This document shows positions 4,093-36,952 of a stretch of DNA of 39,826 nucleotides, one piece after another. The notes under the pieces are model-generated. The model had not been told where the DNA came from. It saw only the letters and a list, made by a program, of their open reading frames with translations, and searched no databases. The position numbers and the translations under genes were made by a program. Origin of the DNA: a candidate division FCPU426 bacterium (GTDB lineage: Bacteria; Oederibacteriota; JAUXIB01); NCBI GenBank assembly GCA_030621225.1, contig JAUXIB010000004.1, positions 1 through 39,826 of the forward strand, in the 5' to 3' direction. The first letter of the stretch is position 1. The number at the start of each line of letters is the position of its first letter.

Positions 4093-4100
4093 GTTGCGTT

Positions 4101-5640: not shown

Positions 5641-5650
5641 TACGGGGACG

Positions 5651-6287: not shown

Positions 6288-6290
6288 ACT

Positions 6291-10745: not shown

Positions 10746-11033
10746 ATCATTAAGCCGACGGATTACGCATCGTGGGAGAAGGCGATTGAGTCCATTGATT
10801 CGGACAATGACGCTTTTATAGACGAGTGTCTAGATGGTAAGTTTGAGGGCTGATACGTAGTTTTGATCCCACCGAGTCTTATTGTATTCGCCTCTTCCAC
10901 CATAGCCTGAGAATTCCGGAGCAAATCGTCCACCTTGCTTATCTCGGTATTAGCAATCCAAAAGTGATATACTACAGGGCAATTAAATGTGCCCCTTGGA
11001 GGCTAGCTTAATTTTATTGAGCGGTAGCGGCTT

Positions 11034-12509
11034 ATGGAGAAGATCCCGGTTACAATAGATAAGTCTCACCTGATTACTATCGGCGAGCGTCTTTATACGG
11101 AAAGCGTAGAGTTACTGCGCGAACTGGTGAATAACGCCTATGACGCCGACGCCAGCGAGGTGAAGATAGAGATATCCGGCGGCAGGGTGGTGGTGGAAGA
11201 CGACGGCTCTGGCATGGATCTCGAGGGCCTCAGGCAGTATTTTAATATTGGTTCGACCTTCAAGCGCGAGCACCCGAAAAGCCCGCGTTTTGGCCGGGCG
11301 AGGATCGGCGAGTTTGGCATCGGCAAGTTCTCGGTGCTCTCGGCCTGCGAGCGTTTCGAGGTATTCAGCAGGCGGGGCGCTTTCGCCGGCACGATCATAT
11401 TTGATAAAAAGGATTGGAATGCTAACGCCGAAGAATGGCAATTGCCCCTGCGGCGTGAGGAGGCGGTAGTGGGGCAGGCCAATGGTTCGCGGGTGGTCTT
11501 GGAGGGCTTGCGCAAGGAATTCGACTTGGAGACAGTAGAGAGAAGGCTGATAGAGACTCTGCCGCTGAAGGCGCCGGAGTTCGCTGTCTTTCTCAACGGC
11601 AAGAAGCTTGTGCCGCGCGCCGTGAGCGGTCGGAAGATCCCTTTTCTGGACGGCACGGATTACGGCGTGGTACACGGTGAGGTGGTGATCCTGCCCGCGT
11701 CGCGGGCCACGCATGGGGAGGCAGGCATTCTGTTGCGGGTTAAAGGGGTGGCGGTGCGCAGGTTTCCCTTTGGCATGGAGCCGGATATTTTACAGCGAGT
11801 GAGTGGCGAGGTTAACGCCGACTTTTTGCCGCTGACCACCGACCGGAACGACGTGATCCGGGACAGCCCGGAGTTCGCGGCGCTGGGCAAGGTGATGGAG
11901 CGGGTGATGGTGCGAGTGAGAGGAGAACTGGATAGCCAGTATGATCGCAAGGAGAACACGCGGATAAAACGCGCTTTGAAGGAGGTGTCAGCAAAAATAG
12001 AAGCGGCCCTGACGAGAAACAGGGACTGGTGCCCACCGGGGCTCTTGCCGCTTGGTGATGGGACTGGCGGAAAAGACATGGCGGCGGTTCCGGGCAAGTC
12101 GGGAGCGAGTGCTGCCGGCGATGAGGGTAAAGCGGCGGAAGAAAAGGCGGAAAAGAAACCGGGGAAGAAAAAGAAAAGACGCCCGCGCCTGAGAAGACTG
12201 ACGCCGAGCGCGATGGTGAAGAAGATGAAGATTGGTCAGATGAACCTGGCCTTGGTGATGGACCATTATGGGTCGGAAGGACCGGAATCGTTCTTGGAGG
12301 GCGATATAATCTATATCAACCGTGATCACCCTCTCTACCAGCGGGAGGCGCGGAACCGCGAACGCCATATTATTAACATTGCCCGCCTCATCTGCCAGGA
12401 GATATCGCTGATGTCAAAGCCGAGGAACCCACGCCATGCCTACGAGCGGCAGTCGAAGCTGATGAAGGACGCCTTTATAAGCGCCAAGAAACCAGCGGAT
12501 GGGGCTTGA
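11034..12509 (+). CDS. GHKL (HATPase_c_3/MORC-like) ATPase
   Basis: ELVNNAYDA (N box), DDGSGM (G1), GEFGIGK (G2), NGSRV; S5-like GEVNADFL; C-terminal YINRDHPLY. Confidence 0.85.
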   Translation: MEKIPVTIDKSHLITIGERLYTESVELLRELVNNAYDADASEVKIEISGGRVVVEDDGSGMDLEGLRQYFNIGSTFKREHPKSPRFGRARIGEFGIGKFSVLSACERFEVFSRRGAFAGTIIFDKKDWNANAEEWQLPLRREEAVVGQANGSRVVLEGLRKEFDLETVERRLIETLPLKAPEFAVFLNGKKLVPRAVSGRKIPFLDGTDYGVVHGEVVILPASRATHGEAGILLRVKGVAVRRFPFGMEPDILQRVSGEVNADFLPLTTDRNDVIRDSPEFAALGKVMERVMVRVRGELDSQYDRKENTRIKRALKEVSAKIEAALTRNRDWCPPGLLPLGDGTGGKDMAAVPGKSGASAAGDEGKAAEEKAEKKPGKKKKRRPRLRRLTPSAMVKKMKIGQMNLALVMDHYGSEGPESFLEGDIIYINRDHPLYQREARNRERHIINIARLICQEISLMSKPRNPRHAYERQSKLMKDAFISAKKPADGA

Positions 12510-12573
12510 GGGTTGATTAAGGGGTAGAAGGACAAGAGGCTACGTAGGACAGGCAAGCTTCGTAGGACAAGTA

Positions 12574-12701
12574 GCTAGACAAGTTAACTGGTAGTAACAA
12601 GGGTGTTCTCGGCGAGCACCTTTTGTTTTAGGCGCGTTCTGCTACATTCATTCCGAAGAGCCTTTCTGTACATTTTTCTTTTGGTAACCCCCCTATTTTT
12701 G
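12574..12701. terminator. Repeat block D containing a terminator-like hairpin (consensus AAAGGTGCTC-loop-GAGCACCTTTT)
   Basis: Copies at 12574-12701, 14800-14940, 27510-27584 and 36061-36203, each downstream of a + strand gene. Confidence 0.75.
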
Positions 12702-12736
12702 CCTGCCCTGCGTAGCGCCTTGTGTTACACCTCTGG

Positions 12737-13324
12737 GGTATGATGACGGATCAAGCGGTAGAAAATATTACCGTAGGGGAGGGCCTCTGCGCCCTCCCCC
12801 ATGCCTCGAAGAGGCATGGCCAAGAGGGGGGCGAAGATGGGAGATGCCCATTTTTGCTTGCCCTTCGTAGCCCCTGCGGCTGCTTGTTAGCAGACAAGCG
12901 CAGGGGCGGAGTAGGGTCAGGAGGGCGATGATAATATGTTATTTGGGGCTCCGGACGCCGGAGGCGTCCCCGTGGTTCCCTACCGTCGGATATTATGAGA
13001 GGGAATCACCGTACGGGCAGCGCATGTCCTTCATAGCTGGCGTTTTCGTCGGTTGAAGTAATGCAGAAGAAAACGCTAACGAAGAAGGACAAAACACAAA
13101 CAAGGGGCGAGGTTACGTGTCACGGGGGAGTTATAGCTTTTTTGTCTAATTTTTCTTGAAGATATAATTTACATCTGGCACAATTGCTTTAACAATTGAG
13201 GGGCGGTGGGGTAGCGGGGGCTTTTCGCTTACCAATATCTGCGGGTGCGGTTTTGGCGTAAATGTCAAATGTCACTTGTCCGTCGTAGTCTAGCCGAAGA
13301 CGGAAGACCTGGCCCCGTCATCTT
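12737..13324. repeat. Second copy of the 8251-8864 mosaic block
   Basis: Direct alignment by eye; also shares 12918-13107 with 6438-6628. Confidence 0.9.
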
Positions 13325-13419
13325 GGGCCGGATCATATTCGCGGGGATAAGGGACAGCTCTTGGTCGCCAAGGCTAGCGAGCAGCTGAAGGTGACCCTAG
13401 AACCTACAGGAGAAATACT

Positions 13420-14715
13420 ATGTTTAACCCTTTTGGTAAATACTTCAGGGATTTGAAGGCAAAGGATCTGGAGATTCTCAAGGACAAGCAAGTAGCTGAG
13501 GGATGGCATGTTGAATACAAGGAAAGCAGACAGAAGGCGGAGAAAGTTGCCAAGTCTGTCTCATCGTTTGCCAACTCGCGAGGAGGAATATATTTTGTGG
13601 GCATTCAGGCCGATGATGATAACCGGTGTAAGAAAGTAGTCGGTGTTGAGGACTCGCCGGATGTGATAAGGGACTGCGTTAAAGGGCACATACAGCCTTT
13701 CCCATATTTCGAGACATTCGCTGTGAAACTAGTCAACAATATGAAAGTTCTAATAGTGGTAGTGCCAGAGAGCAAGACTCCTCCGCATATTCATTCTGAC
13801 GGAAGAATCTACGTTCGACAAGAAGCGGCTTCGGATCCTGTCTTTCAGAGTGATAGACATGTTATTGATGGTCTATATTCTAGGGCAGAATCGTGGCGGA
13901 AGGATCTTCAGGACTTCAGAACAATGGACTACGAATTATGCCAAGGGGAGAGCAATCAGCCCTATCTTCAGATCTTCATGAATACGGTGCCATATAAGCA
14001 TTTCATGATGAGCGACCTGTTTAAGGGCGAAGAGATAACGAAAATGCTAGCCCATTTTCACAAAGGCTATGAGATATCAGAAACGATAGATGGTAAGAAC
14101 GTGCCTTTCAGGGGGAATATCACATTAGATACCGTGAATACTTACCACAATAGTGTGGCTTTGAGGTATTTGAACGGAAGCGACATTTCTCGCAATGGAT
14201 TGACGGTAGAGGTGGATATTCATGGCAACACAAAGGTGCTTCTGCCTTTGGAATACACAACCTATGATAATCTTGAGAAGGAGGACGAGCTGTTCCAGCG
14301 TTACCATATTAAGTTAAGCAAATCGAACTTGGTTGCCGTGGATACCATAAAGTTCATCAACGTGAAAACACTATACGGTGCAATACTGGGACTGTTTGTG
14401 AAGGTCTCGAAGTACCTGAAAGACAGAGGCTATGAAGATACTCTAGAGGTAAAGATGAGATTGAGTGATTCGTGGCGAACGACGCTATACTGCGCCAGCG
14501 AAACATTTGTGTTCTATATAGAAGAGTGGGGAGTCCCTATCTGTATGAAGAATGACCAGTATTTTCCGGAATATGATCTTATCGTCAAGTTATCAGAGCT
14601 GAAGGCGAAGCCCATCACTCAGACTGCCCTTCTTTTTGCCCCGGTGGCCTCAGCGTTGGGCATGACAGGTTCCATAGCTACTCAAGCTGTGATTCAGACG
14701 CTTGCGAAGAAATAG
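13420..14715 (+). CDS. AlbA_2/Schlafen-like domain protein
   Basis: EGWHVEYKES, VSSFANSRGGIYFVGI, VVVPESKTPPH..GRIYVRQ N-terminal signature. Confidence 0.8.
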   Translation: MFNPFGKYFRDLKAKDLEILKDKQVAEGWHVEYKESRQKAEKVAKSVSSFANSRGGIYFVGIQADDDNRCKKVVGVEDSPDVIRDCVKGHIQPFPYFETFAVKLVNNMKVLIVVVPESKTPPHIHSDGRIYVRQEAASDPVFQSDRHVIDGLYSRAESWRKDLQDFRTMDYELCQGESNQPYLQIFMNTVPYKHFMMSDLFKGEEITKMLAHFHKGYEISETIDGKNVPFRGNITLDTVNTYHNSVALRYLNGSDISRNGLTVEVDIHGNTKVLLPLEYTTYDNLEKEDELFQRYHIKLSKSNLVAVDTIKFINVKTLYGAILGLFVKVSKYLKDRGYEDTLEVKMRLSDSWRTTLYCASETFVFYIEEWGVPICMKNDQYFPEYDLIVKLSELKAKPITQTALLFAPVASALGMTGSIATQAVIQTLAKK

Positions 14716-14799
14716 GTGAACAGAAAGAGGGGGTCACTTATGAAAAAGCATGTCAAGCACGAAATGACGAAGGAATAGAGGAAGAGGGAACAGGCTTAA

Positions 14800-14955
14800 G
14801 CTAGGCAAGTTGACTTGTAGTAACAAAGGTGCTCTCGGTGAGGACCTTTTATTTTAGGCGCATTCTGCCATATTCATCCCAAAGATCTTTCCTATATCTT
14901 TTTTCATCTTTTTTTCAGCAAACCCCCATTTTGGTCAGGGGGAGGTGCTACGATA
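14800..14955 (+). promoter_or_regulatory. Block D terminator followed by a CCCCATTTTGGTCAGGGGG..TGCTACGAT extended -10 module
   Basis: Same arrangement recurs at 36061-36216 (TGGTAGGAT). Confidence 0.55.
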
Positions 14956-14979
14956 GTTAGGTAAAGAAAGGAGGATGAT

Positions 14980-15855
14980 ATGGAGCGAATGCACTTGAAC
15001 CAGCAGGGATCCTTTGATAGTCTTATTGAGGAAAGAGTGTTTGAATTAAGGAGAATGCGGATGAAGAAGTGGATTAATGGAATTCATTGTGGAGATTGTC
15101 TCGAGCTAATGAGGAAGATGCCCGAGAAGTGTATAGACCTGGTCGTTACGTCACCCCCCTATAATTTAAGAAACTCAACGGGGAATGGTATGAAGGACGG
15201 TCGTGGAGGTAAATGGGAAAAAGCCAGGTTGATAAACGGTTATGAAGAGCATGACGACAAAATGCCGCATGATAAATATGTGAGCTGGCAGAGAGATTGT
15301 CTAGCAGAAATGATGCGTCTGCTTAAGGATGATGGAGCTATATTTTATAACCACAAATGGCGTGTCCAGAAGGGAAAGTTGCAAGACAGACAGGACATTG
15401 TTGGTGATTATCCCGTTAGGCAGATAATTATCTGGCAGCGCAATGGCGGGATCAACTTTAATGCTGGATATTTCCTGCCTACATATGAGGTGATTTATCT
15501 AATAGCCAAACCAAAGTTTAGGCTCGCAAAAGGAGCAAATAAAATTGGTGATGTATGGTCAATACCTCAAGAAATGAATAATGAACACCCCGCTCCTTTT
15601 CCGGTGGAATTGATAGAAAGATGTATTGGCTCTACTAAGGCGAAGATCGTTTTAGATCCGTTTATGGGAAGTGGGACGACCGCTGTAGCGGCAGTTAATC
15701 TTGGCAGAAAATGGATTGGTTTTGATCTTTCTAAAACTTACTGCAAAATGGCGATGGAGCGTTTGGCAGAGAAGAAAGGATTAAATGATTCGCCATCTAA
15801 AGAAGTCCGAGCTAGAAGTAAAGTTAAAGGAAGTCATCGGCTTAGGTTGGCATGA
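14980..15855 (+). CDS. Beta-class amino-methyltransferase (SPPY, probably N4-cytosine)
   Basis: DLVVTSPPYN precedes HPAPFP and VLDPFMGSGTT; alternative start at 15061. Confidence 0.9.
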   Translation: MERMHLNQQGSFDSLIEERVFELRRMRMKKWINGIHCGDCLELMRKMPEKCIDLVVTSPPYNLRNSTGNGMKDGRGGKWEKARLINGYEEHDDKMPHDKYVSWQRDCLAEMMRLLKDDGAIFYNHKWRVQKGKLQDRQDIVGDYPVRQIIIWQRNGGINFNAGYFLPTYEVIYLIAKPKFRLAKGANKIGDVWSIPQEMNNEHPAPFPVELIERCIGSTKAKIVLDPFMGSGTTAVAAVNLGRKWIGFDLSKTYCKMAMERLAEKKGLNDSPSKEVRARSKVKGSHRLRLA

Positions 15856-16561
15856 TGTTTCAAGGTTTTCTGGCTCGGGAAGAGCGGGGGTCTTGTTAGA
15901 ACATTTGCTGGGTATTGAGGGGGGGAATTATGATTTACCAGACGCAGTTGGACACGAACTTAAGACGTCTCTTTCCTCCACTACGTTGGTTACGTTATTT
16001 CATAAGGATCCTAAGCCGCGAAAACCAAGTGTGGTTAAAGCACTCGTCGATGGTTTTGGCTGGGAGCCAACTCACAAAGACAAGTATCCGAGTGGAACTT
16101 TAAGCTTTAGGCACACGATTCACGGCAAGTCAGATAGAGGGTTCTCAGTTATTGTCGATGATGAGAAGATATCCATTGCTTTTCGTCCAGAGGATGTAGA
16201 CGCGAAGCACCGCGAATGGTTGGATTTAGTGTATAAAAGAACGAAGGGTCGTCTTGACCCATGTCCATACTGGACTGTCGACGAGATAGTATCCGCAGCA
16301 TCCTCGAAGTTGAGAAACTGTATTTTTGTAAAAGCAGTACAAGATAAGCCACAGAAGATGGTGAAGTATACAAACGCGTATTTTCTTGCTAACTTTAAGC
16401 CTATGTTCTTCCTTAAGTGTATCAAGGAAGGAAGGGTAGCCATTGACTTTGATGCAAGAACGAAAGGCAAAACAGTGAGAAACCACGGAACGAAATTTAG
16501 GATAAAAGAAGAGTATTGGCCGCACTTGTTTGAGAGTCAAGAGGAGCTGACCATACCTTAG
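15785..16561 (+). CDS. MvaI/BcnI-family type II restriction endonuclease
   Basis: G.AG.LLE.LLGI...N...PD....ELKT, VTLFHKDP, RNHGTKFRI; overlaps the MTase end. Confidence 0.8.
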   Translation: MIRHLKKSELEVKLKEVIGLGWHDVSRFSGSGRAGVLLEHLLGIEGGNYDLPDAVGHELKTSLSSTTLVTLFHKDPKPRKPSVVKALVDGFGWEPTHKDKYPSGTLSFRHTIHGKSDRGFSVIVDDEKISIAFRPEDVDAKHREWLDLVYKRTKGRLDPCPYWTVDEIVSAASSKLRNCIFVKAVQDKPQKMVKYTNAYFLANFKPMFFLKCIKEGRVAIDFDARTKGKTVRNHGTKFRIKEEYWPHLFESQEELTIP

Positions 16562-16707
16562 GGGGTGGGTGGCGCAGTGAATTCATCTAGTTTTGTAGGC
16601 ACCTTGTCCTGAGAAAACTATTTTGGGGTGATAAACGGACCGCGTCTTCCTCCTCCGTTTTACTACGGCGCGACTGGAGAATTATGACATATTAAGGAGC
16701 TTATTGA

Positions 16708-17619
16708 ATGTCCCTCGAAGCATCCCGCGAAATCCAAATCCGTATGAAAGCCTTCGCTTGGCTCAAGGAGAGAGCTATTGGGAATGAGGGCGTTTTTCAT
16801 TCCAGCGAGCTCAACGATTTCAAGGTTGATGGGAAGAGGATTACTCTAAAGGGATCAAGAGGGATATGGCAGCCCAAAGGTTGGGAGCTGCCGATTTCGA
16901 TTACCACCGCGGCAGATGGACCCTATGAGGATGTTGTCTCGGATGACGGTTTGATTCTTTACAAGTATCAAGGAACGAATGCCCAGCAGTGGGACAACGT
17001 TGGTCTGCGCAAAGCGATGCAGCAGCATGTTCCACTGATATACTTCCACGGTATTTCCCGAGTGAAGGGAAGACATGTCGCGATTTGGCCGGTGTTTATT
17101 GTGGGGGATGATCCTGCGAGCTTAACCTTCACAGTTGCTGCTGATGATATGTCAGCGCTGGATCAGGCGACTGAGAATGGTTTTGCTGAAGAGAACACTG
17201 GACGTCGGCAATACATCACAGCTACCGTGCGGCAACGCTTGCACCAACGCTCTTTCCGTATTCGTGTTCTGGATGCTTACCGCGAACGCTGTTCCCTGTG
17301 CAACCTAAGACATCCGGAGCTCCTTGACGCAGCACATATCATCCCTGACGGCCAACCAGGAGGCGATCCGATAGTTCCAAACGGTCTGTCCCTTTGCAAA
17401 ATTCACCACGCTGCCTTTGACAGAAACTTCTTGGGCATTACTCCTGACTATAATATTGATGTCCGAGCGGATATCCTGAAAGAGAATGACGGTCCCATGC
17501 TCCAGCACGGGCTGAAAGAACTGCATGAGAAGAAAATTATTCTGCCTAGGCGGAAGGATGATAGACCTAAGCCGGAGTTGCTTGAGAGAAGGTATGCAGA
17601 GTATAAACAAGTTGGATGA
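16708..17619 (+). CDS. HNH endonuclease with N-terminal SRA-like domain (putative modification-dependent REase)
   Basis: PYED....LI.YKYQG....DN.GLR.AM....PLIYF; RLHQRSFR..VLDAY..RCSLC, LDAAHI, NGLSLCKIHHAAFD. Confidence 0.8.
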   Translation: MSLEASREIQIRMKAFAWLKERAIGNEGVFHSSELNDFKVDGKRITLKGSRGIWQPKGWELPISITTAADGPYEDVVSDDGLILYKYQGTNAQQWDNVGLRKAMQQHVPLIYFHGISRVKGRHVAIWPVFIVGDDPASLTFTVAADDMSALDQATENGFAEENTGRRQYITATVRQRLHQRSFRIRVLDAYRERCSLCNLRHPELLDAAHIIPDGQPGGDPIVPNGLSLCKIHHAAFDRNFLGITPDYNIDVRADILKENDGPMLQHGLKELHEKKIILPRRKDDRPKPELLERRYAEYKQVG

Positions 17620-17681
17620 AGGACGAAAGGGTTAAAAGGATCGAATCTCAATCGAATCTCGATTGAATGATATAATTAATA

Positions 17682-17923
17682 AGAATCCCCGGGCTAACAC
17701 CCGCGGTATTCTTGTCCCGAACGGTCGCCGGCAGGCGACCACAAGTTTTTCCTCCTTCGAATATGAAAAAGAAAAGCTTCTATTGCGTCCGCTTCCTCCT
17801 ACGCTAACCTACTTCGCACTTCGTGCTACGAAGGTCAGGAAGCTATGGAGGACAAGAAAGCGAACGATATATAACGCTTCCTCCACGAGCTTACGCTCGT
17901 GGTATTCGTGCGCAACGGAATAA
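17682..17923. mobile_element. Non-autonomous IS200/IS605-like insertion with nested palindromic repeats
   Basis: Interrupts ..ATTAATAA^ACGGTAAAT.., which is intact at 9025-9041. Subterminal hairpins CCCCGGGCTAACACCCGCGG and CCACGAGCTTACGCTCGTGG, each followed by TATTC. Confidence 0.6.
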
Positions 17924-18007
17924 ACGGTAAATGCGGAGACTTGACCCTGACCCTCGGAGTATACGTTGGTGAATGAGCGGATAGACAAGTAGCGGGGAGA
18001 AAGCAGA

Positions 18008-19144
18008 ATGGACTATGGACGAGGTCTGAACGATAGACTGTCTTTGTGCCTGGATAAGTTCAGTATATTCGTAGAGAAGGAAAACGGTACGCCGCTAGAA
18101 CAATTCAGTTCCCATCGTTATGTAGTTGAATATGAGAACTACAAGACGATACTTCGGCTGGACGCCAGGGATAAATTGCTGTATTGGCAGTGGGAAAGTG
18201 AGTCTTTCGGAAGTGGTTTGATTCTCGAGAATCTTATAGGTGCAATTGAAATAGACGAGAACAATTTCTTCCGATGGAGGGAGAAGCGCGTTGGGCTCAA
18301 GGGGATAGCTCATCGAAGGTTGGTTGAGCTGAGAGGGGGATCGGATGACCTAGCAGAATTCGAAAAGAAGACATACCTATTCTTCAAAGATGAATGTTCG
18401 CATAAACATTACTTTGACTATCTAGTGGAGACTATCGGTAGGAAGTACTCGCTACTAGCATATATCTTCTTTCTCAAGGATTCTGAAAAGTACCTCCCGA
18501 TTTCTACCACTAACTTTGATAGACTTTTCATTGATCTTGACGTACCTATCACGACCAACAGAAATTGTTCGTGGGAGAACTACCAGGAGTTTCTCGGGTT
18601 CATAGCTCATGTGAGGGAGTTTTTGGGCACAAAAGGCCGTGGTGAGATATCTCTACTTGATGCGCACTCCTTCTGTTGGATTCTCACAAAGCAAATGAGG
18701 AAAAAGGCCGAAGAGCTGCCGTTTCTCAAGGGAGCGATGGGTGCGGGGACCGGGGAGAACCGAATATCTACAACCACTGCAAGAATAGGACAGGATCGTT
18801 TTCGAAAGCACCTGATCGCTCTGTGGGGCGAGAAATGCTCGATATCAGACTACGATAATCTGAAGTTCCTTACTGCGTGTCATATAAAGCCTTGGAATGA
18901 TTCAACTAGTGAGGAGAAGGGTGATCCCGACAATGGACTTCTGCTTACCCCGTGTTACCATGAACTGTTTGATAAGGGCTACATAAGCTTCGATGATGAT
19001 GGAGGAATAGTGCTGTCGAAGAAACTGATGACAGATGATGTGGACTCGCTGAGCATTGATAAGTCTGCGAAGTTGAGACAGGAACTGACGATTGACCAAA
19101 AGCGTTACCTTGAATTCCATAGAGAGAACATATATAAGTCCTAG
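18008..19144 (+). CDS. HNH endonuclease
   Basis: C-terminal RIGQDRFRK.LI..W...CSIS, ACHIKPW, DPDNGLLL..YHELFDKGYISF, YLEFHR. Confidence 0.85.
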   Translation: MDYGRGLNDRLSLCLDKFSIFVEKENGTPLEQFSSHRYVVEYENYKTILRLDARDKLLYWQWESESFGSGLILENLIGAIEIDENNFFRWREKRVGLKGIAHRRLVELRGGSDDLAEFEKKTYLFFKDECSHKHYFDYLVETIGRKYSLLAYIFFLKDSEKYLPISTTNFDRLFIDLDVPITTNRNCSWENYQEFLGFIAHVREFLGTKGRGEISLLDAHSFCWILTKQMRKKAEELPFLKGAMGAGTGENRISTTTARIGQDRFRKHLIALWGEKCSISDYDNLKFLTACHIKPWNDSTSEEKGDPDNGLLLTPCYHELFDKGYISFDDDGGIVLSKKLMTDDVDSLSIDKSAKLRQELTIDQKRYLEFHRENIYKS

Positions 19145-19163
19145 CGAATAGTGACTGAGCTTT

Positions 19164-20156
19164 ATGCCTACTAGTAGATATAGAAAACTATCAGACTTCA
19201 TTCGCAACCAGATGCGGATGTCGCATGTCTATCAGCCGGTAATGCTGATTGAGTTGTTGAAGCATGAGGGCAAGGCTTCGGTGCGGCAGATTGCCAAGGC
19301 GTTATCGGGGCAGGATCTCTCTCAGATTGAATACTACGAGCAAATTACCAAGAATATGGTGGGTCGGGTGCTTACTAAGAATCGGGGGATCACTGATAAG
19401 CAAGAGAACAACTACCACATAAAGGGTTTTGACCAGCTCTCGCCGGCTGAGATCAAGCAGTTGGTTGAGTTATCGATGCAGCGCTTGGATGAATACGTGG
19501 CCAAGCGAGGCAAGGACATCTGGTCGCACCGGCGCAAGTCGAGCGGCTACATATCTGGAACCAAGCGTTATGAAGTGTTAAAGAGAGCCAAGTTTTGCTG
19601 TGAACTGTGTGGCATCTCTGCTCGCAAAAAGGCGTTGGAGGTGGATCACATTGTGCCGCGAAGCAAGCAGGGATCCGATGATATCTCGAATCTTCAAGCG
19701 TTGTGTTACAGCTGTAATGCCATGAAGCAGAATCGGGACGACACCGACTTTCGTGGCATCGAAAGACGCTACAAGGAAAGAACTCCCGGCTGTGTCTTTT
19801 GCGACCTGCCCAAAAAGCGGATCATTGGCGAGAACGAACTGTGCTTAGCAATGCGTGATAAATATCCAGTGACCGAGTTACATTCGTTAGTTATTCCCAA
19901 ACGGCATGTGCGCGAATACTTTGGATTATTCCAGCCGGAGCTAAATGCAGTTAACTCCTTGTTGGTAGAACTGAAGAAAGATATCGCGAAGCGTGATGAT
20001 ACAGTGACTGGCTTTAATATTGGGGCAAACTCTGGGCCTGATGCCGGGCAGACCATTTTTCACTGTCACATCCATCTGATTCCAAGAAGGAAGGGCGATG
20101 TAAAGAATCCGCGCGGGGGAGTGAGGGGAGTGATTCCGGAGAAGCAAGGGTATTAG
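19164..20156 (+). CDS. Fusion: N-terminal helical/wHTH-like domain + HNH nuclease + HIT hydrolase
   Basis: CELCG..LEVDHIVP..NLQALC..CNAMK; then CVFC, DKYPVT..HSLVIPKRH, AGQTIFHCHIHLIPRR. Confidence 0.88.
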   Translation: MPTSRYRKLSDFIRNQMRMSHVYQPVMLIELLKHEGKASVRQIAKALSGQDLSQIEYYEQITKNMVGRVLTKNRGITDKQENNYHIKGFDQLSPAEIKQLVELSMQRLDEYVAKRGKDIWSHRRKSSGYISGTKRYEVLKRAKFCCELCGISARKKALEVDHIVPRSKQGSDDISNLQALCYSCNAMKQNRDDTDFRGIERRYKERTPGCVFCDLPKKRIIGENELCLAMRDKYPVTELHSLVIPKRHVREYFGLFQPELNAVNSLLVELKKDIAKRDDTVTGFNIGANSGPDAGQTIFHCHIHLIPRRKGDVKNPRGGVRGVIPEKQGY

Positions 20157-20484
20157 TGTAAGTAGTGTGTGATGAAAAAGTCGCAATTCTAGACGCGGTC
20201 CCTTAATTTTATACGTAGAGGAGCACCACTGCGTGCTCCCCCATGCCTCAAAGAGGCATGGCTAAGGGTGAGTTTTTTCGATTGAACACGTAGGGGCAGC
20301 CCATGCCTGTCACACCTGCGAAAGCATGTCCTCATGAAAACGGGGATAGGTGTCCAATACAAAAGGGGAGGGTGTGGGTGAAGGAAGCCAGGAGTGGGGG
20401 TGAAGAAGGGCGTGCAATAAATGTCAGAGGTGGGGCGAAGGGGACAAGTCTAAAACTGTCTATCGACTAAATTAAGGAGGCACC

Positions 20485-22755: not shown

Positions 22756-24783
22756 ATGATTATCAAATCAATCCGCGCGAAGAATTTTCGATCCATCAAA
22801 GACGCAACGCTCATATGCGAGAATCTGTCTGTATTGGTAGGAGGGAATGGTGCAGGTAAATCTTCTTTCTTCAAAGCTATTGAAGTATTCTATAATCCTT
22901 CAACAGTAATTACTGAGGATGATTATCATAATAAAAAGTTGGACGAAGAAATAGCGATTTCAATAACGTTTACTGAATTGACAAAGTCAGAATTGGATGT
23001 GCATTCAGCGTATGTTGATGAGAAGGTGCTTACTGTTGAGTATATAGTTAAGTGGGATGGCAGAAAGGCAATAGGGAAGTATCATGGTGCCACTCTTAGA
23101 AACGGAGAATTCGCGGTTGTAAGAGAGGCTTTAGAATTATCAGACAGGGGAGCTACCGCTAAGAAGGAATATAGCTTTTTGCGGGGAAAGGAGAAATACA
23201 GCAGTCTACCCGCCTATGGCTCTAAGGGAGCGACCGAAGAAGCTCTTGTAGCGTGGGAAAAAGAACATCCGGGTGAATGTATAAGAATGCGTGATGCCGG
23301 ACAGTATTTCGGTTTTAAGGAAGTGGGGCAGGGGAAATTAGAGAAGCACACCAAATTTATTCTCATTCCTGCTGTCAGAGATGCTTCCGATGATGCGGAA
23401 GAGGGACGAGATTCATATCTATCAGAATTAATGGAATTGCTAGTAAGAAGCGCCATATCGAATCGAAAAGAGTTTCGGGATTTTAGGGAACGAGCGAAGG
23501 AAGAGTATAGTAATATAATGAACCCCGAAAACATCAAAGAACTTGATGAATTATCTTCCACTATGACCGAAACCTTGCAGACGTTTGTTAAGAACGCAGA
23601 AGTGGATCTATCGTGGCGGGACTTACCGGAGCCGACTTTTCCTTTACCACAAGCAGATATGAGACTGGTCGAGGATGACTATAAGGCTACCGTGACACGA
23701 GTTGGACATGGCCTACAACGAGCGCTTATCTTTACTATTTTTCAGCATCTTGCAATGGCACAAGAAAACAAAGTTATTGAAACCGTGGAGGCACAGGGAG
23801 AAGGCGAAGGAAACGATGAAGAGCTCGGGCAGCCAAATCTGATAATTGCAATTGAAGAGCCAGAGCTATATCAGCACCCCAGTCGCCAACGTCACTTATC
23901 AGATATTCTTTCACAAATAGCTAAAGGAACAATACCAGGTGTGGCGAAAAAAACTCAAATTCTATATAGCACACATTCCCCTTTGTTTGTGGGAATGGAT
24001 AGAATTAATCAGGTCAGACTGATCAAGAAGAGTAAGATGGATAATAGTTCGATCAAACAGACAACAGTAGCTCAGATAGACGTGGACGCGATAGCCGAAA
24101 AATTATGGGAGCTGAATGGAGCTTTGGGAGAAAAATATACAGCTGAAAGTGTGCTTGCGCGTCTTGGAACGATTATGACACCTATGATGAATGAAGGTTT
24201 CTTTGCTAATGTTATTGTGCTTGTGGAGGGCGAAGGAGACAAAGCTGTCTTGCATGGAATAGCAAAGGTTAAGAAAATAGATTTTGAGGAGCAGGGAGTA
24301 TCTGTCATTCCTTGTATGGGGAAAACCAATATTGATAGGCCATACCTAATCTTCAAGAAATTTGGAATAGATGTATTTATAATGTGGGACGGCGATTACG
24401 GCAAAGGTCAGGAAGGGGAGGGATGCGAGAAGTGCGGCAGGGGGAAAAGCAAGGCCGCAAATCCTTCCGAAAACAGGCGCATCCTTGCAATGTTAGGTCG
24501 AACGGAGCAAGATTGGCCAGATGAAGTAACTGAAGAACATGCTTGCCTAAAGGTGGATCTGGAGACAACCATAAAAGAGGAAATAGGCGAGGATGAATTT
24601 GCGAAAAGTCTTTCTGAGTGCTGTGAAGAATTTGGCATGAAGAAGAGATATGCTCTAAAAAATCCATATGTTATTGAGAGCATTGTGGGAACGAACAGAG
24701 AAAAGGGCCGAATTTGCTCTACACTTGAAAAAGTAGTTGATAAAGTTATTGCTATGAAAAACCGAAAAGATCGTGATTGTTGA
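22756..24783 (+). CDS. OLD-family ATP-dependent nuclease (ABC ATPase + TOPRIM)
   Basis: KNFRSI, Walker A GGNGAGKS, IPAVRD, VGHGLQR, Walker B IEEPELYQHP, STHSP, TOPRIM VEGEGD and WDGD. Confidence 0.9.
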   Translation: MIIKSIRAKNFRSIKDATLICENLSVLVGGNGAGKSSFFKAIEVFYNPSTVITEDDYHNKKLDEEIAISITFTELTKSELDVHSAYVDEKVLTVEYIVKWDGRKAIGKYHGATLRNGEFAVVREALELSDRGATAKKEYSFLRGKEKYSSLPAYGSKGATEEALVAWEKEHPGECIRMRDAGQYFGFKEVGQGKLEKHTKFILIPAVRDASDDAEEGRDSYLSELMELLVRSAISNRKEFRDFRERAKEEYSNIMNPENIKELDELSSTMTETLQTFVKNAEVDLSWRDLPEPTFPLPQADMRLVEDDYKATVTRVGHGLQRALIFTIFQHLAMAQENKVIETVEAQGEGEGNDEELGQPNLIIAIEEPELYQHPSRQRHLSDILSQIAKGTIPGVAKKTQILYSTHSPLFVGMDRINQVRLIKKSKMDNSSIKQTTVAQIDVDAIAEKLWELNGALGEKYTAESVLARLGTIMTPMMNEGFFANVIVLVEGEGDKAVLHGIAKVKKIDFEEQGVSVIPCMGKTNIDRPYLIFKKFGIDVFIMWDGDYGKGQEGEGCEKCGRGKSKAANPSENRRILAMLGRTEQDWPDEVTEEHACLKVDLETTIKEEIGEDEFAKSLSECCEEFGMKKRYALKNPYVIESIVGTNREKGRICSTLEKVVDKVIAMKNRKDRDC

Positions 24784-24788
24784 AATCC

Positions 24789-24873
24789 GGAGGGTTGGCC
24801 GAGTGGTCTAAGGCGGCGACTTTATAAGTCGTTGGGCAGAAGTGCTCCGGGGGTTCGAATCCCTCACCCTCGG
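24789..24873 (+). tRNA. tRNA-like gene: class II (long variable arm) Ser-type body with TAT anticodon; G1:G72 mismatch; no encoded CCA
   Basis: GGAGGGT/ACCCTCG acceptor; GCC-GAGTGGTCTAA-GGC D arm; GCGAC-TTTATAA-GTCGT anticodon arm (TAT at 24823-24825); GGGCA-GAAG-TGCTC variable arm; GGGGG-TTCGAAT-CCCTC T arm; G73. Confidence 0.85.
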
Positions 24874-25059
24874 ATCTAATGAAGGGACCGAGGTTTAGTG
24901 GGGCGAGGATCATACTTGACTTGATAAAAACATTCTTGAAGTGCCCGTTTTTGTCCGGTGCTCGTGTTAGTATAGTTCATAGTTTAGATGATTGCGTTAA
25001 GGTCTTAGTCGTCGACACAAAGAGTGGAGTAACTCATCAATCTCAGATATAATGAAGCC

Positions 25060-26454
25060 ATGAGTGGAACCGTAGCCGACAAGAAGAGATTACTGAAAGT
25101 AACCGCTGCCAATCTTAAGCGAGGCAAGTTGAGCATAACCGGGAATTATGACTTTTTCCCGGCAAGATCCCTCAGGATTCATCTTAAGGGATTGGATGAT
25201 ACTATTACGACCCATGTAAGCCATGGTCCGAATGGGAAACCTGATGGATATCTTGATGGTACGGAATGGGTGCGGCGCTTCTATGAATATCATAAGATTA
25301 GAACAGGGGACATCCTCGCTCTTGAAAAAAACGGCAATGGCACTTATCGATTGTATTCCTTTGAGGCAAAGCCGGAGAGACATGGCGATTGGCATCGATT
25401 CGTACACAAGCCTTTGCGGGGCAAGGGTCCCACGATATTAGAGCTCTTTGCGGGATGTGGTGGATTGATCCAGGGCTTTAAGAGAGCAGGTTTCAGAACT
25501 GTGTTAGCAAACGAATGGGATGCGTCTGCCGCAGAAACAATCAGAGCTAACCTAACGGAAAGAGTGGCGCAATGCGCCGTGCAGGAGATAAAGAAGTTTC
25601 CCTCTGTTGATGTTGTGGCCGGCGGACCGCCGTGCCAAGGTTTTAGCAATCTTGGGGAGAGAGTGCCCTGTGATCCTCGACGACAACTATGGCGACATTT
25701 TATGAGAGCGGTTGGAGAAGCGAGTCCCAGGGCTTTTGTGATGGAGAACGTCCCGCCGCTTCTTTCGTCTCAGGAATACGTTGAGATAAAGAAGATAGCT
25801 ACTGAGCTAGGATACAACGTGGCGGGAAAGATACTGAACACTGCTGATTATGGTGTGCCACAAGTTAGAAAACGGACGATAATCATAGGATTGCAGGAGG
25901 GCACTCCGTCGTTCCCCGAGCCTACACATGTGAATCCAGCCAAGAAAGACCTCTTGAATAGCGAACTTCCCCCGTGGCAAACTGTCAGAGATGCCATCGG
26001 CGATCTTCCCTTTGAACCGGACGGTAGAAATTGGCATATTGGACGAAATCCTACCGATAAATCCAAGAAGAGATATAGGTGCATACCCGCAGGAGGTAAT
26101 CGATGGGATCTTCCGAGACATTTGATGCCCGACTGCTGGAAAAGAAAGACGAAAGGCGGAACGGATCTTTTTGGTCGCTTGTGGTGGGATCGTCCCTCGG
26201 TAACGATACGGACGGAGTTTTACAAACCGGAAAAGGGAAGATACTTGCACCCTGAAGCTCATCGACCGATCACTCATCGTGAAGCCGCGAGATTGCAGGG
26301 GTTCCCGGATGACTTTGATTTTAAGGGTAGTAAGATTAAAGTTGGAATTCAAATTGGTAATGCAGTTCCCCCTCTTTTAGCAGAGGCAATCGCCAAACAT
26401 GTCGCTAAGTTGATTGCAGTAAGGAAGCCTGCCGAGTTGGTTGCATCAGGATAA
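25060..26454 (+). CDS. DNA (cytosine-5)-methyltransferase with an N-terminal extra domain of about 115 aa
   Basis: ELFAGCGG (I), GGPPCQGFS (IV), MENV (VI), YGVPQVRKR (VIII), REAARLQGFPD and QIGNAVPP (IX-X). Confidence 0.95.
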   Translation: MSGTVADKKRLLKVTAANLKRGKLSITGNYDFFPARSLRIHLKGLDDTITTHVSHGPNGKPDGYLDGTEWVRRFYEYHKIRTGDILALEKNGNGTYRLYSFEAKPERHGDWHRFVHKPLRGKGPTILELFAGCGGLIQGFKRAGFRTVLANEWDASAAETIRANLTERVAQCAVQEIKKFPSVDVVAGGPPCQGFSNLGERVPCDPRRQLWRHFMRAVGEASPRAFVMENVPPLLSSQEYVEIKKIATELGYNVAGKILNTADYGVPQVRKRTIIIGLQEGTPSFPEPTHVNPAKKDLLNSELPPWQTVRDAIGDLPFEPDGRNWHIGRNPTDKSKKRYRCIPAGGNRWDLPRHLMPDCWKRKTKGGTDLFGRLWWDRPSVTIRTEFYKPEKGRYLHPEAHRPITHREAARLQGFPDDFDFKGSKIKVGIQIGNAVPPLLAEAIAKHVAKLIAVRKPAELVASG

Positions 26455-26470: not shown

Positions 26471-27451
26471 ATGGCAAAAAGGCGGCCCCAAAAAGGTGTA
26501 AACGAGCTGATTGCGTATATTGACCGAGAGTTGAGAAAATTCGGCAAAGTGCGTAAGGGTGTTTCTCTGCGAAATAATGTAATTGCCTTGGCGAGGTTGC
26601 GCCAAGCGTTAGATGATCTTGGAGTTAGTACGTTGGCGGAAGGTGGGATATCCGCCAAAGGAGCAAGAGAGCGAATAAAGTTATACATGCGCGAGTATGT
26701 CGGTGAAGTTATTGAGAGCGTTGAGCTTGAGGTAGTCACGGGTATCTCAGAATATGCGCGAAGAATTCGAGAACTTAGGGTTCAATTCGGCTATCATATA
26801 GCATCCGGGGCTTCCCCTGATCCGCATTCCGAGGTGGATCTACGACCGGATCAATACATTCTTGTTGATGGGGAACCTGATCAGGATGCAGCGCGGAGGT
26901 GGGGGATAGTCAACAGAATTAGGCGAGGCAAAGGCGGCAGCAAAGATAAAATTCTACAGTTTTTGAAAGAGAATGTTGGAAAAGTTGTTACGACGGAAGA
27001 ACTTGCCTACGTTGCTAATAAAGTCAAAAATTACCCTCGCCGAATCAGAGAGCTCAGAACCGAAAGTGGTTATTCGATAGCTACCAGGTTAACCGGACGC
27101 CCGGATCTAAAAGTTGGCCAGTATGTATTGCTGTCCGCCGAGAGAATCGCCGAACCGCACGATAGACAAATCCCTGATGAAATACAAAAGACTGTATATG
27201 AACGAGATAAAAGTAAATGTAAAGTTTGTGGGTGGACTCAAGACCGCTGGTCCAAAAGAGATCCAAGAATACTTGAACTTCACCACTTGGAACACCATAA
27301 GGAAAAAGGTTCCAATAGGGAGGAAAACTTGACGGTCATCTGCAGTAAGTGCCACGATGAAGTACATTCGGGGAAACACAGAGGTGTTGTCGACAAGATA
27401 AAGAAAGCACTATGTCGGACGTATTCTCGAAGAAAAAAAGATCGGAGATAA
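26471..27451 (+). CDS. HNH endonuclease with two wHTH-like repeats; probable cognate REase
   Basis: Repeats VGEVI...EL.....YARRIRELR..FGY and VGKVV...EL.....YPRRIRELR..SGY; CKVCG..ELHH..N....L..IC..CH. Confidence 0.85.
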   Translation: MAKRRPQKGVNELIAYIDRELRKFGKVRKGVSLRNNVIALARLRQALDDLGVSTLAEGGISAKGARERIKLYMREYVGEVIESVELEVVTGISEYARRIRELRVQFGYHIASGASPDPHSEVDLRPDQYILVDGEPDQDAARRWGIVNRIRRGKGGSKDKILQFLKENVGKVVTTEELAYVANKVKNYPRRIRELRTESGYSIATRLTGRPDLKVGQYVLLSAERIAEPHDRQIPDEIQKTVYERDKSKCKVCGWTQDRWSKRDPRILELHHLEHHKEKGSNREENLTVICSKCHDEVHSGKHRGVVDKIKKALCRTYSRRKKDRR

Positions 27452-27561
27452 TGAGTCGCATCCGCGGCCCGGGCACTAAGCCGGGGGCGAGGGTCATACC
27501 TTCGATGGTCAAGTTAACTTGTAACAACAAAGGTGCTCTCGGAGAGCACCTTTTGTTTTAG
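27412..27561 (+). pseudogene. vsr: Truncated very-short-patch-repair endonuclease
   Basis: MSDVFSKKKRSEIMSRIRGPGTKP is the classic Vsr N-terminus. Homology ends near 27483 and the frame runs into repeat block D. Confidence 0.85.
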
Positions 27562-27582
27562 GCGCATTCTGCCATATTCATC

Positions 27583-27672
27583 CCTGAGCATTTTATGTTT
27601 CGCTTAAATCGGGAAGAAACCACGGCTTTGAGATGCCAATCTGGCATCTCAAAGAAAGGCAGAGGCGGGCGA
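27583..27672 (+). pseudogene. Internal fragment of an ORF6N-domain gene
   Basis: PEHFMFRLNREETTALRCQSGISKKGRGGR aligns with FPEDFMFELTKDEARVLRSHFATSKKGRGGR of 36953..37471. Confidence 0.8.
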
Positions 27673-35926: not shown

Positions 35927-36060
35927 TATTTTTTCTGCGATGAGCGGGTTGACGAGGGGACTGCGGAATGGGGGGGCAGGTCTCCGCATTCCGCATTGAG
36001 GTCTTGGCATAGGATGATGACGTTCAACCTCTGGGGTTGACACCCCAGAGGTTGAACGGC

Positions 36061-36216
36061 GCTAGACAAGTTAACTTGTAGCAATAAAGGTGCTCTCGGT
36101 GAGCACCTTTTGTTTTAGGCGCATTTCGCTACATTTACCCCAAAAATCCTTTCTGTATCTTTTTTCATCTTTCTTTTGGCAAACCCCCGTTTTTGTCAGG
36201 GGGTGGTGGTAGGATA
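36061..36216 (+). terminator. Block D terminator plus extended -10 module
   Basis: AAAGGTGCTCTCGGTGAGCACCTTTT, then CCCCCGTTTTTGTCAGGGGGTGGTGGTAGGAT. Confidence 0.7.
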
Positions 36217-36255: not shown

Positions 36256-36723
36256 ATGAGCGACAAAGCGGCATCAAAATGTTGGATCTGCGAAGAAGTC
36301 TACAAGCGGCAGCGGAATGGCGCGGGGCAATGCCTCGCCTGCGGTAACTGGTTCTGTGGCGAGGAACACGGTTTGATTGACTATCACGGGGAGGATTATT
36401 GTATTTCTTGTTATTGGACTCTTCTAAGCACGGGGGATATCTCACCAAGAACTGATGTGAAGAAGGCCCAGGCGGCAGAGGAAGAGGAATGCTGGATATG
36501 CCGCGAGGTTTTAGCGCGCGAGCGGAAAGGCGATGTGAAGTGCGCAAAGTGCGGCAGAAATTGTTGTGGTGCCGAACACGTTGACTTTGACGCCAAGGAC
36601 GATGATTTTTGTCTCTCGTGCCACTTTGATGAGACCGGCGGCCCCTTCAAGGGTGATTTCTACGTTCTCACAGAGAACGGGGAAATCCCGATCCCCGGTC
36701 CACGAAGTAAAACTAACGTTTAA
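36256..36723 (+). CDS. Small protein with two tandem Cys/His zinc-binding repeats
   Basis: CWIC..C..CG..(F/C)CG.EH..C.SC twice; RBS AAGGAG. Confidence 0.75.
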   Translation: MSDKAASKCWICEEVYKRQRNGAGQCLACGNWFCGEEHGLIDYHGEDYCISCYWTLLSTGDISPRTDVKKAQAAEEEECWICREVLARERKGDVKCAKCGRNCCGAEHVDFDAKDDDFCLSCHFDETGGPFKGDFYVLTENGEIPIPGPRSKTNV

Positions 36724-36952
36724 CCTCTGGGGTGTTAACCCCGGGGTTAGGGTCCACAGGTGAGTTATTCAAAATAGTTTTCCTGACCCCCATTTTTGCC
36801 TGCCCTTCGTAGCTCCTGCGTCTGCTTGTCAGCAGATAAGCGCAGGGGCGGAGTAGGGTCAGGCTTGTCTTGCCGTAGTCTCTGACGACGGCTGAGGGTG
36901 ATGGTAATATAGACTCAGGGGCAGGGAAGATGTTTTAGTAAAGGGGGAGAAT

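Follow-up and report, generated by a model that had tools for sequence, protein, structure and literature searches.

A serine-type tRNA gene with an AUA-reading UAU anticodon in a bacterial defence-gene array, and a scattered class of similar genes mostly beside transposases

Natural tRNAs in which identity and anticodon disagree are rare and represent raw material for changes of the genetic code. The published bacterial cases that we found are the structurally odd allo-tRNAs and the Pro-type tRNA-ProX. Allo-tRNAs are defined, in the sections of Mukai et al. 2017 drawn on here (PMC5389517), by a 12-pair acceptor branch of the 8/4 or 9/3 type together with a Sec-like D arm of long stem and tetraloop. 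Their long variable arm and G73 or U73 suggest serine identity; seryl-tRNA synthetase (SerRS) relies on the long variable arm and the discriminator. The anticodon of allo-tRNAs is a non-Ser one, with UAU forming the most abundant group, and they occur, mainly in Acidobacteria of soil, close to toxin-antitoxin loci and transposon-related genes (PMC5389517). The tRNA-ProX/ProRSx pairs of Streptomyces and Kitasatospora, as outlined in parts of a 2024 review of mistranslating tRNAs (PMC11415595), combine Pro identity with Ala, Asn or Thr anticodons, an unusual A33/A34 and an adjacent synthetase gene. Here, we describe a tRNA gene on a 39,826-base contig of a candidate division FCPU426 bacterium (assembly GCA_030621225.1; the whole contig is called the window below), in which a Ser body and an Ile anticodon are mismatched within an otherwise ordinary cloverleaf. 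It lies in an array of defence-type genes, referred to as the island. It is a genuine, foreign class-II tRNA gene, and we see about an even chance that it is a horizontally acquired, orphan Ser-type UAU copy that is at most weakly active, that is, attenuated or decaying rather than an efficient recoder. Its interest comes mainly from the wider tRNA(UAU) class to which it led.

The gene is the only Rfam match across the window (RF00005 at 24789-24873 on the plus strand, 49.8 bits, E 7.3e-8, gathering score 29), and ARAGORN calls a tRNA-Ile(tat) at 24788-24874; all coordinates are window positions, and the parts of the gene are listed in Table 1. The acceptor strands are GGAGGGT and ACCCTCG, with G24873 as the discriminator (G73) according to the sequence and the ARAGORN drawing. 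A D arm of Ser type, GCCGAGTGGTCTAAGGC, has a stem of 3-4 pairs and a large loop, AGTGGTCTAA, with GG (Rfam, ARAGORN), the anticodon stem of 5 to 6 pairs carries a canonical 7-nt loop, the Rfam model aligns the variable arm as a 14-nt insertion, and the T arm is standard (GGGGG-TTCGAAT-CCCTC, stem of 5 pairs). No CCA is encoded at the 3' end. In an alternative drawn by ARAGORN, the acceptor has eight pairs starting from C24788:G24873, with G.G as the second pair and A24874 as discriminator; the 7-pair reading of Rfam and this 8-pair reading both contain one broken pair near the top and are followed by no CCA. The flanks ATCC (24785-24788) and GGAT (24872-24875) are complementary if G24789 is bulged. 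For the isolated 85-nt RNA, the cloverleaf is the minimum-energy fold in RNAfold (-35.1 kcal/mol, z = -1.68, 13 of 200 shuffles as stable). In the genomic context 24770-24900, with flanks of 19 and 27 nt, the minimum-energy fold is not the cloverleaf (z = -0.69), and the acceptor stem meets competition from a hairpin at about 24868-24893. In this hairpin, the acceptor 3' strand CCTCGG pairs perfectly with CCGAGG 16 nt downstream, which involves the mismatched G24872.

A first-pass annotation made from the letters alone had already described a complete long-arm tRNA with TAT, G73 and G1.G72, and this description holds. Its complementary flanks were borne out on the proviso of a bulged G24789, and the fold is, as it had stated, not of the 8/4 or 9/3 allo-tRNA type, with a D arm that is not Sec-like in either Rfam or ARAGORN. 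It had also proposed a Ser-type body, which is upheld by the comparison with ordinary tRNA genes, in which sequence similarity stands as a proxy for tRNAscan-SE isotype models. Global alignment scores are 26.5-30 against the three host tRNA-Ser genes and 2-12.5 against two host tRNA-Leu genes. Identity to the three tRNA-Ser genes is 71-75%, and a DNA search of 60 related genomes gave matches at 70-76% identity plus short partial ones; at all 11 related-genome loci examined with ARAGORN, a tRNA-Ser gene was located at or beside the nearest match, with TAT in none of them. Because of these identities, alignment scores and nearest loci, the body is judged from its sequence to be Ser-like and not a recent duplicate of a host gene.

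In the whole assembly, ARAGORN found 26 tRNA genes and Rfam 25, and among the 25 Rfam matches the window tRNA has the lowest score. CCA is encoded in 24 of the 26 ARAGORN calls, i.e. in all 24 credible host tRNA genes; only the window tRNA and a doubtful 95-nt call on contig C136 are without it. The latter, a 'tRNA-Gln(ttg)' at G000:C136:4262-4356, is not in the Rfam list and is probably a false call. A tRNA search of the host genome at E <= 0.001 returned the window gene itself only, and the exact 28-nt anticodon/variable-arm stretch had no match in the genome contig collection. From its limited identity to host tRNA-Ser, the missing CCA, the lowest Rfam score and its place in a low-GC stretch of the window, the gene is taken to be foreign to the host and horizontally acquired.

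Similar genes were found with a degenerate pattern consisting of U8-G9, the Ser-type D arm TGRCCGAGYGGNNNAAGG and the loop YTTATA, which fixes the D arm and the anticodon loop. In the 596-Gb genome collection, where we calculate that about two matches would arise by chance, it hit 16 genome loci from at least 7 phyla, namely Acidobacteriota (six), Bacteroidota (three), Pirellulales, Clostridium aminobutyricum, Thermodesulfobacteriota, Bdellovibrionota and, within the Proteobacteria, an unclassified metagenome-assembled genome, Acidovorax delafieldii and Tatumella ptyseos; all 16 are long-arm tRNA(tat) genes of 83-97 nt according to ARAGORN. The metagenome collection contributed 69 further contigs. 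A long-arm tRNA(tat) was called by ARAGORN in 72 of the 85 loci (numbered L014-L029 and L041-L109), giving 55 unique sequences and, with the window tRNA, an alignment of 56 rows. In this alignment, 13 of 18 consensus pairs keep pairing via changes on both sides, that is, by covariation. G is the discriminator in 47 rows, with U in 5, A in 3 and C in 1; 46 of the 56 rows retain an intact pair 1:72, and many look-alikes encode CCA. In about 10 of the 56, one or two bases at the start or end of the acceptor are replaced, as in the window copy; none of these is beside an IS1595-type open reading frame (ORF). The window tRNA shows the Ser-type D arm, the YTTATAN loop, the long variable arm and G73 that characterize these genes; by its features it would belong to a class of Ser-type tRNA(UAU) genes that appears to ride on mobile DNA where the context is visible.

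The class is sparse, widely scattered and sporadic in its occurrence. The TAT pattern was present in none of 120 other Acidobacteriota genomes sampled, or none of 118 without the unpublished G127 and G152, which have one ordinary TGA match each. When the anticodon was left free, the matches in 121 Acidobacteriota genomes carried mostly TGA, GGA, GCT and CGA, the non-Ser triplets being TCA (twice) and GTA, ATC and ACC (once each), with TAT in the centre genome only. Likewise, among 301 genomes of the Acidovorax family, a class member is harbored by the centre genome alone. When plasmids were searched with the Acidovorax look-alike, matches were at 75-80% identity, presumably to ordinary tRNA-Ser, and none was closer; a looser pattern had one match in viral contigs, which ARAGORN did not call a tRNA.

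Two variations within the class may be mentioned. In one subgroup (L024:7399-7495, L026:6205-6295, L058:495-591 and L103:7008-7098), an acceptor of eight pairs and a T stem of five form an 8/5 branch like that of bacterial tRNA-Sec, and the discriminator is U; in L024 and L058 it is followed by CCA. Most members of the Acidobacteriota type (e.g. L044:2266-2360) have the T loop GGTCCGAATCC with C in place of U55, a base that almost all tRNAs share; in the window tRNA the T loop is of the usual form, GGTTCGAATCC.

The recurrence of TAT bears on an alternative in which a host tRNA-Ser gene became a plain pseudogene and its anticodon drifted to TAT. The Ser-type body, the lowest tRNA score in the genome, the G.G mismatch and the lack of CCA would all agree with it. 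Nevertheless, we find it hardly credible and consider it largely refuted: the gene is only 71-75% identical to the host tRNA-Ser genes, the host search recovered nothing but itself, at least two anticodon substitutions separate it from any Ser anticodon while its other stems are all paired, and TAT recurs in 72 loci elsewhere with covarying stems. The first-pass annotation had named a TAT not conserved in homologs as a mark of such a pseudogene. TAT was found in none of the 11 nearest related-genome loci; its recurrence in look-alikes elsewhere is unlike a random pseudogene change.

The 72 look-alike tRNAs, obtained through a search prompted by the window tRNA, stand mostly beside a transposase in which ATA is conserved as a codon. 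When ORFs within 3.5 kb of these tRNAs were clustered, the dominant neighbor family, present in 41 of the 72 loci, carried the Pfam domains DDE_Tnp_IS1595 and Zn_ribbon_IS1595; an IS1595-type transposase was found in 35 of the 52 loci having at least 1200 nt of downstream sequence. It is downstream of the tRNA and on the opposite strand in 37 of the 41 loci, with a median gap of 135 nt (e.g. transposase L084:6067-7347 and tRNA L084:7478-7573, which are convergent). In three IS1595 loci, the sequence in common is bounded by the transposase start on one side and the tRNA 5' end on the other, no convincing inverted repeats bounding transposase and tRNA were seen in four loci, and there is usually one full transposase-tRNA unit per genome. 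Other neighbors of look-alikes include IS1-like DDE genes, an IS30-like gene, a tyrosine integrase (L047), ArdC, Cro/CI-type HTH and small HARE-HTH proteins, and in two cases housekeeping genes alone. Two of the IS1-like DDE transposases, L023:2685-3527 from Bacteroidota and L025:6346-7176 from Thermodesulfobacteriota, are 43% identical and both have ATA at one and the same codon of the motif RYSPA...

Among 30 unique IS1595-type transposases (median pairwise identity 0.59), 21 columns contain at least 10 Ile codons. Four of these columns are nearly or entirely ATA (23/25, 18/18, 15/15 and 20/20) and a fifth has 8/12, whereas the 16 others have 0-4 ATA each (8/279 in all, our own sum). In 58 conserved control columns, the commonest codon had a mean share of 0.54, and a single codon was used in one column only. 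This split into ATA-only and nearly ATA-free Ile columns argues that ATA is not interchangeable with ATT or ATC in these transposases. In a wider comparison of 126 representatives of the family with the L084 protein, three of its four ATA positions are polar or small in the relatives and almost never Ile: position 185 has T 57, N 15, E 10 and S 9 (Ile in 5 of 125), position 210 has G 33, R 14 and K 11 (Ile in 2 of 124), and position 259 has K 27, P 21 and R 18 (Ile in 4 of 126). ATT and ATC positions of the transposase are mostly hydrophobic. The L033 transposase of the same clade has its three ATA codons at the ATA-only columns 4, 185 and 259, and ARAGORN detects another tRNA(tat), missed by the pattern, about 900 nt downstream of it; in three related transposases that lack a tRNA nearby, ATA is absent from the ATA-only columns. 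These columns can be explained in two ways. By inference, AUA may be read privately by the tRNA of the element as a small polar residue, Ser, although the residues at these positions in the relatives do not single out Ser. A rare-codon gate that would be opened by the element's tRNA fits the columns as well.

This pattern is the basis of a second reading, which we hold tentatively and as improbable rather than far-fetched, namely that tRNA(UAU) is a device of mobile elements that reads AUA unlike the host, and that the window copy is a live member borrowed by the defence island. The transposase may then need its own tRNA to yield the intended protein, either so that AUA is privately read as Ser or so that a scarce codon is privately supplied. 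In the window, the weakened acceptor end may limit misreading until the OLD unit is induced, after which Ser would be inserted at AUA throughout the proteome. If the coupling of transposase and tRNA is true, a mobile element would own a means of sense-codon recoding or codon-specific control that is open to direct test, and this would explain why UAU is the favored anticodon of such tRNAs.

The window itself shows no codon coupling of the IS1595 kind. A tblastn search with the 30 transposases found no relative in the window contig, and the host's IS1595-type gene (C214:18429-19304) has 3 ATA among 18 Ile codons, none of them at the special columns. The host and the neighboring genes keep AUA as Ile. 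The first-pass annotation had assumed the normal bacterial AUA system, and it is there: tilS was detected at 174.6 bits, above the curated cut-off, and the three CAT tRNAs of the host read from their sequences as initiator, elongator Met and tRNA-Ile2. With tilS and a tRNA-Ile2-like gene in place, the window tRNA is supernumerary. The host also has serS (520 bits) and one gene of the CCA-adding/poly(A) polymerase family, so that maturation and charging of the window tRNA are possible in principle.

In host ORFs of at least 200 aa outside the window contig (629,490 codons), ATA amounts to 15.95 per 1000 codons and 28.9% of Ile codons, above ATT; such use is unusually high for a genome of about 50-55% GC. 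The Ile codons of the OLD gene are 19 ATA, 21 ATT and 9 ATC, which makes the earlier hand count of 19 exact. ATA per 1000 codons reaches 28.1 in OLD, 37.0 in HNH_2, 26.6 in the PD-(D/E)XK gene and 21-37 in several island genes. Codon columns were compared with 119 homologues of OLD, 119 of the C-5 methylase and 86 of the HNH_2 gene at 18008-19144, a column being called hydrophobic at 60% or more. ATA stands at hydrophobic columns in 13 of 19 cases in OLD, 10 of 10 in the C-5 methylase and 10 of 14 in HNH_2; pooled, 33 of 43 ATA and 50 of 56 ATT plus ATC codons do so (Fisher p = 0.11). At methylase position 383, where the window gene has ATA, all 119 homologues have Ile. For the window tRNA, no dependent partner gene is apparent.

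These counts lend no support to the earlier suggestion that Ser at AUA could selectively penalize AUA-rich invaders: with ATA this common in the host and placed at conserved hydrophobic positions in the island, an efficient Ser inserter would harm host and island as much as the invader, and the pairing of OLD with the tRNA was seen at none of four homologous loci. They bear equally on the reading of the gene as an active conditional mistranslator, in which a Ser-tRNA(UAU) expressed with OLD would poison protein synthesis as an abortive-infection or anti-invader effector. The Ser identity elements, the intact anticodon loop and the co-orientation with OLD inside a defence-gene array speak for this reading, as does the finding, given in the consulted sections of PMC5389517, that E. 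coli was arrested and killed on induction of allo-tRNAs which insert Ser and carry Leu anticodons. It is nonetheless an unlikely one, since selectivity is missing, island genes use ATA at conserved hydrophobic positions, the G1.G72 mismatch and the missing CCA argue against high activity, the OLD pairing is not conserved, and viral contigs gave a single looser-pattern match that is not a tRNA.

The same richness in ATA could be taken to favor an Ile-accepting AUA decoder, in which isoleucyl-tRNA synthetase recognizes UAU and the gene supplements tRNA-Ile2 for the ATA-rich island. ATA does mean Ile in the island genes, and bacterial tRNA-Ile(UAU) species exist. Against it, the gene has a long variable arm and G73 and not the class-I body and A73 of tRNA-Ile, all of its nearest relatives are tRNA-Ser, the host has tilS and a tRNA-Ile2-like gene, and ATA is high host-wide without any need for the window tRNA. 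We therefore regard this decoder as improbable.

The window is contig C217 of a 2.6-Mb assembly of 266 contigs that is 89.6% complete. Nearly all of its genes are on the plus strand, and many of the 30 ORFs covered by a Pfam scan are of the defence or conflict type: HD, Fic, DUF2779/Cas4-like, SEC-C, a HATPase protein, Schlafen/AlbA_2, an N4/N6 methylase with MvaI/BcnI endonuclease, two HNH_2, HNH-HIT, and PD-(D/E)XK plus RNase_H_2. The gene order around the tRNA is OLD nuclease, tRNA, C-5 methylase and HTH-HNH protein (Table 1), within a region of low GC content (0.42-0.48 at 14-28 kb versus mostly 0.50-0.56 over the rest of the window). Full-length OLD homologues are 45-50% identical; homologues of OLD occur in 2 of 98 other genomes of the host phylum and in 11 plasmid records, of which the two best were examined, and OLD relatives were absent from viral contigs. 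At the four OLD-homologue loci examined in the host phylum and plasmids no tRNA was present, and OLD and the tRNA are not a conserved pair.

Table 1. Features of the tRNA gene and its immediate neighbors (window positions).
Feature	Position	Strand	Basis
Class-II tRNA gene with long variable arm, Ser-type body, anticodon TAT and G73	24789..24873	+	Rfam, ARAGORN, RNAfold
G1 opposite G24872 (position 72), single broken acceptor pair	24789	+	Non-standard in Rfam alignment; ARAGORN drawing
Anticodon TAT (reads AUA); loop TTTATAA at 24821-24827	24823..24825	+	ARAGORN: position 36 from 24788 start
Variable arm: 5-pair stem GGGCA/TGCTC, loop GAAG	24834..24847	+	ARAGORN drawing; RNAfold draws 4/5 pairs
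OLD-family nuclease gene, 675 aa	22756..24783	+	Pfam AAA_15 8.8e-41, OLD-like_TOPRIM 1.7e-18
C-5 cytosine DNA methyltransferase gene, downstream of tRNA	25060..26454	+	Pfam DNA_methylase 3.1e-66
HTH_39 + HNH endonuclease gene, last before terminator-like repeat at 27503-27584	26471..27451	+	Pfam; repeat family D3
Copy of repeat element D12 between tRNA and next gene	24944..24974	+	Repeat search: 4 copies; aligned with other intergenic modules

The tRNA starts 5 nt past the OLD stop codon. A consensus scan detected no promoter-like plus-strand site downstream of 23732 and no terminator-like site beside the tRNA; co-transcription with OLD would therefore be the simplest assumption. Other units of the array end with the hairpin module D3 followed by D12, which may be promoter-like, whereas the tRNA has D12 only after it. 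More generally, the intergenic regions of this one-strand defence array consist of repeated modules of 30-185 nt with 83-97% identity between copies (at 12573-12729, 14799-14955, 27503-27584 and 36060-36216, and families D5-D20 across 2245-20266). Among their parts are a hairpin with a T run and a possible promoter, which looks as if expression signals were common to the cassettes. A 40-nt imperfect palindrome (CGTTTAACCTCTGGGG...CCCCAGAGGTTA...) occurs four times (4097-4136, 5414-5453, 36021-36060 and 36717-36756), with ends that we take to be similar to integron attC core sites. The contig starts with seven tandem units of 44-48 nt (4-355), each with two short palindromes, upstream of an epimerase gene.

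The position directly behind OLD leads to a rather unlikely third reading, to be placed just before the mistranslator, in which the gene is a non-translational tRNA-like element that would provide RNase P/3'-end processing and a stabilizing structure for the OLD transcript, or a decoy or ligand for an island nuclease. The tRNA stands where other cassettes carry the hairpin terminator module and is followed by D12 alone, without a promoter-like site just upstream or a terminator-like site after it. Leader and trailer can extend the acceptor helix through ATCC/GGAT, and the alternative hairpin competes with the acceptor 3' strand. Moreover, most allo-tRNA(UAU) species are perhaps not used in translation according to the sections of Mukai et al. 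considered (PMC5389517). Yet such a role needs neither a canonical 7-nt loop with U33, UAU and A37 nor a Ser-type D arm nor G73, none of the four OLD-homologue loci examined carries a tRNA, and the fold in context is no more stable than shuffles.

The broken acceptor end may also be viewed as the remnant of an integration site, where the 3' end of the tRNA was clipped as the methylase-HNH unit or another element inserted, which would explain G72 and the missing CCA. The tRNA-likeness does break exactly at the 3' end, from position 72 onward, replaced acceptor ends recur in about 10 of the 56 aligned genes, and an integrase adjoins the look-alike L047. Such an origin is very improbable, because no second tRNA 3' half was found in the window (up to 3 mismatches) or the genome (up to 2 mismatches), no integrase or transposase is among the Pfam-scanned window genes, and the UAU anticodon would be left unexplained.

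We thus return to the orphan copy of at most weak activity. Mechanistically, a tRNA-Ser body (long variable arm, G73, G2:C71, A3:U70, Ser-type D arm) would here be joined to a UAU anticodon, as a class orphan behind OLD at the end of its transcription unit, within a defence-type array of low GC. The tRNA would be transcribed along with OLD, excised by RNase P and 3' trimming, provided with CCA by the host nucleotidyltransferase and charged with serine by SerRS, which ignores the anticodon; it could then compete with the lysidine-containing tRNA-Ile2 at AUA, with insertion of Ser. Given that AUA is a frequent, ordinary Ile codon in host and island, together with the G1.G72 mismatch and the absence of CCA, a weak or decaying copy is judged likeliest. 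With efficient insertion of Ser, about 1.6% of host codons and conserved cores in the neighboring genes would be affected, and for this reason the orphan or weak copy was ranked first.

Several points weigh against this preferred interpretation. Besides pair 1:72, the gene has kept all its stems and the conserved residues of its D and T loops within GC-poor surroundings, which could reflect selection for function and not decay, and the recurrent broken acceptor ends could be a means of attenuation and not damage. Identity to the look-alikes reaches about 73% at best (62/85), compared with up to 76% to ordinary tRNA-Ser of related genomes, so that common descent with the class is no more than possible, and the D arm and anticodon loop of the look-alikes are dictated by the search pattern itself. 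A weak hint comes from OLD, in which 4 of 19 ATA but 1 of 30 ATT plus ATC codons fall at columns rich in Ser or Thr. Pooled over three genes, the difference is not significant (4/43 versus 1/56, p = 0.16). All four columns (106, 176, 393 and 441) are in OLD, and they could be explained by single C-to-T changes from ACA.

Among the known systems, ordinary bacterial tRNA-Ser is the obvious reference for the body. Its identity resides in the acceptor pairs G2:C71 and A3:U70 with G73. The window tRNA shares with it the class-II body, the acceptor beginning GGAG..., these two pairs and G73, the D arm GCCGAGTGGTNNAAGGC and the T arm GGTTCGAATCC. It differs in having UAU instead of NGA or GCU, G.G instead of G1:C72 at pair 1:72, and no CCA. 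For the anticodon, the reference is tRNA-Ile2, which is of the lysidine CAU type or of a rare UAU type and is a class-I tRNA with a short variable loop and A73. The CAU type of bacteria is covered in the available part of the tRNAscan-SE 2.0 preprint (10.1101/614032). The window tRNA is like tRNA-Ile2 in reading AUA and unlike it in its long variable arm and G73; an automatic annotation as 'tRNA-Ile' would be wrong. In tRNA-Sec, a UCA anticodon is combined with a 13-pair 8/5 branch and a 6-pair D stem. In contrast, the window gene has TAT and a D stem of 3-4 pairs, and an 8/5 branch is possible only with the G.G mismatch.

A Ser-identity tRNA that reads the codon of a hydrophobic amino acid is known from the CUG-clade yeasts, whose tRNA-Ser(CAG) is eukaryotic and belongs to a genome-wide reassignment with matched codon usage. 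The window tRNA is like it in this combination, as far as the excerpts of PMC6041473 describe it. Unlike in these yeasts, the original meaning of the codon is kept by the host and the neighboring genes. With tRNA-ProX the window tRNA shares the union of one amino acid's identity elements with the anticodon of another, and in the parts of PMC11415595 used here the function of tRNA-ProX in its hosts is given as unknown. It differs from tRNA-ProX in lacking an adjacent synthetase gene, and none is needed by SerRS, which ignores the anticodon.

No account of a Ser-type tRNA(UAU) with a canonical fold, or of IS1595-type transposases coupled to a tRNA and a codon, came up in the literature searched, which was mostly without subscription journals or supplements, and a literature query for 'allo-tRNA' plus 'transposase' found nothing. 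The terms UAU, AUA and allo-tRNA were absent from the searchable text of the 2024 mistranslating-tRNA review in a term search (PMC11415595). The allo-tRNA(UAU) group is the closest comparison. The window tRNA was set apart from it by text descriptions, and the published allo-tRNA(UAU) set may overlap with our look-alikes. Both have a long variable arm, G73 and the non-Ser anticodon UAU, and a role in translation is doubted for allo-tRNA(UAU) in the sections of Mukai et al. at hand (PMC5389517). Unlike in allo-tRNAs, the 5-pair T stem of the window tRNA abuts a 7-pair (Rfam) or 8-pair (ARAGORN) acceptor, which gives a 7/5 or 8/5 branch, and the D arm is an ordinary Ser-type one with G18 and G19 and not Sec-like. 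The window tRNA is therefore best called a canonical-fold counterpart of allo-tRNA(UAU), its nearest precedent.

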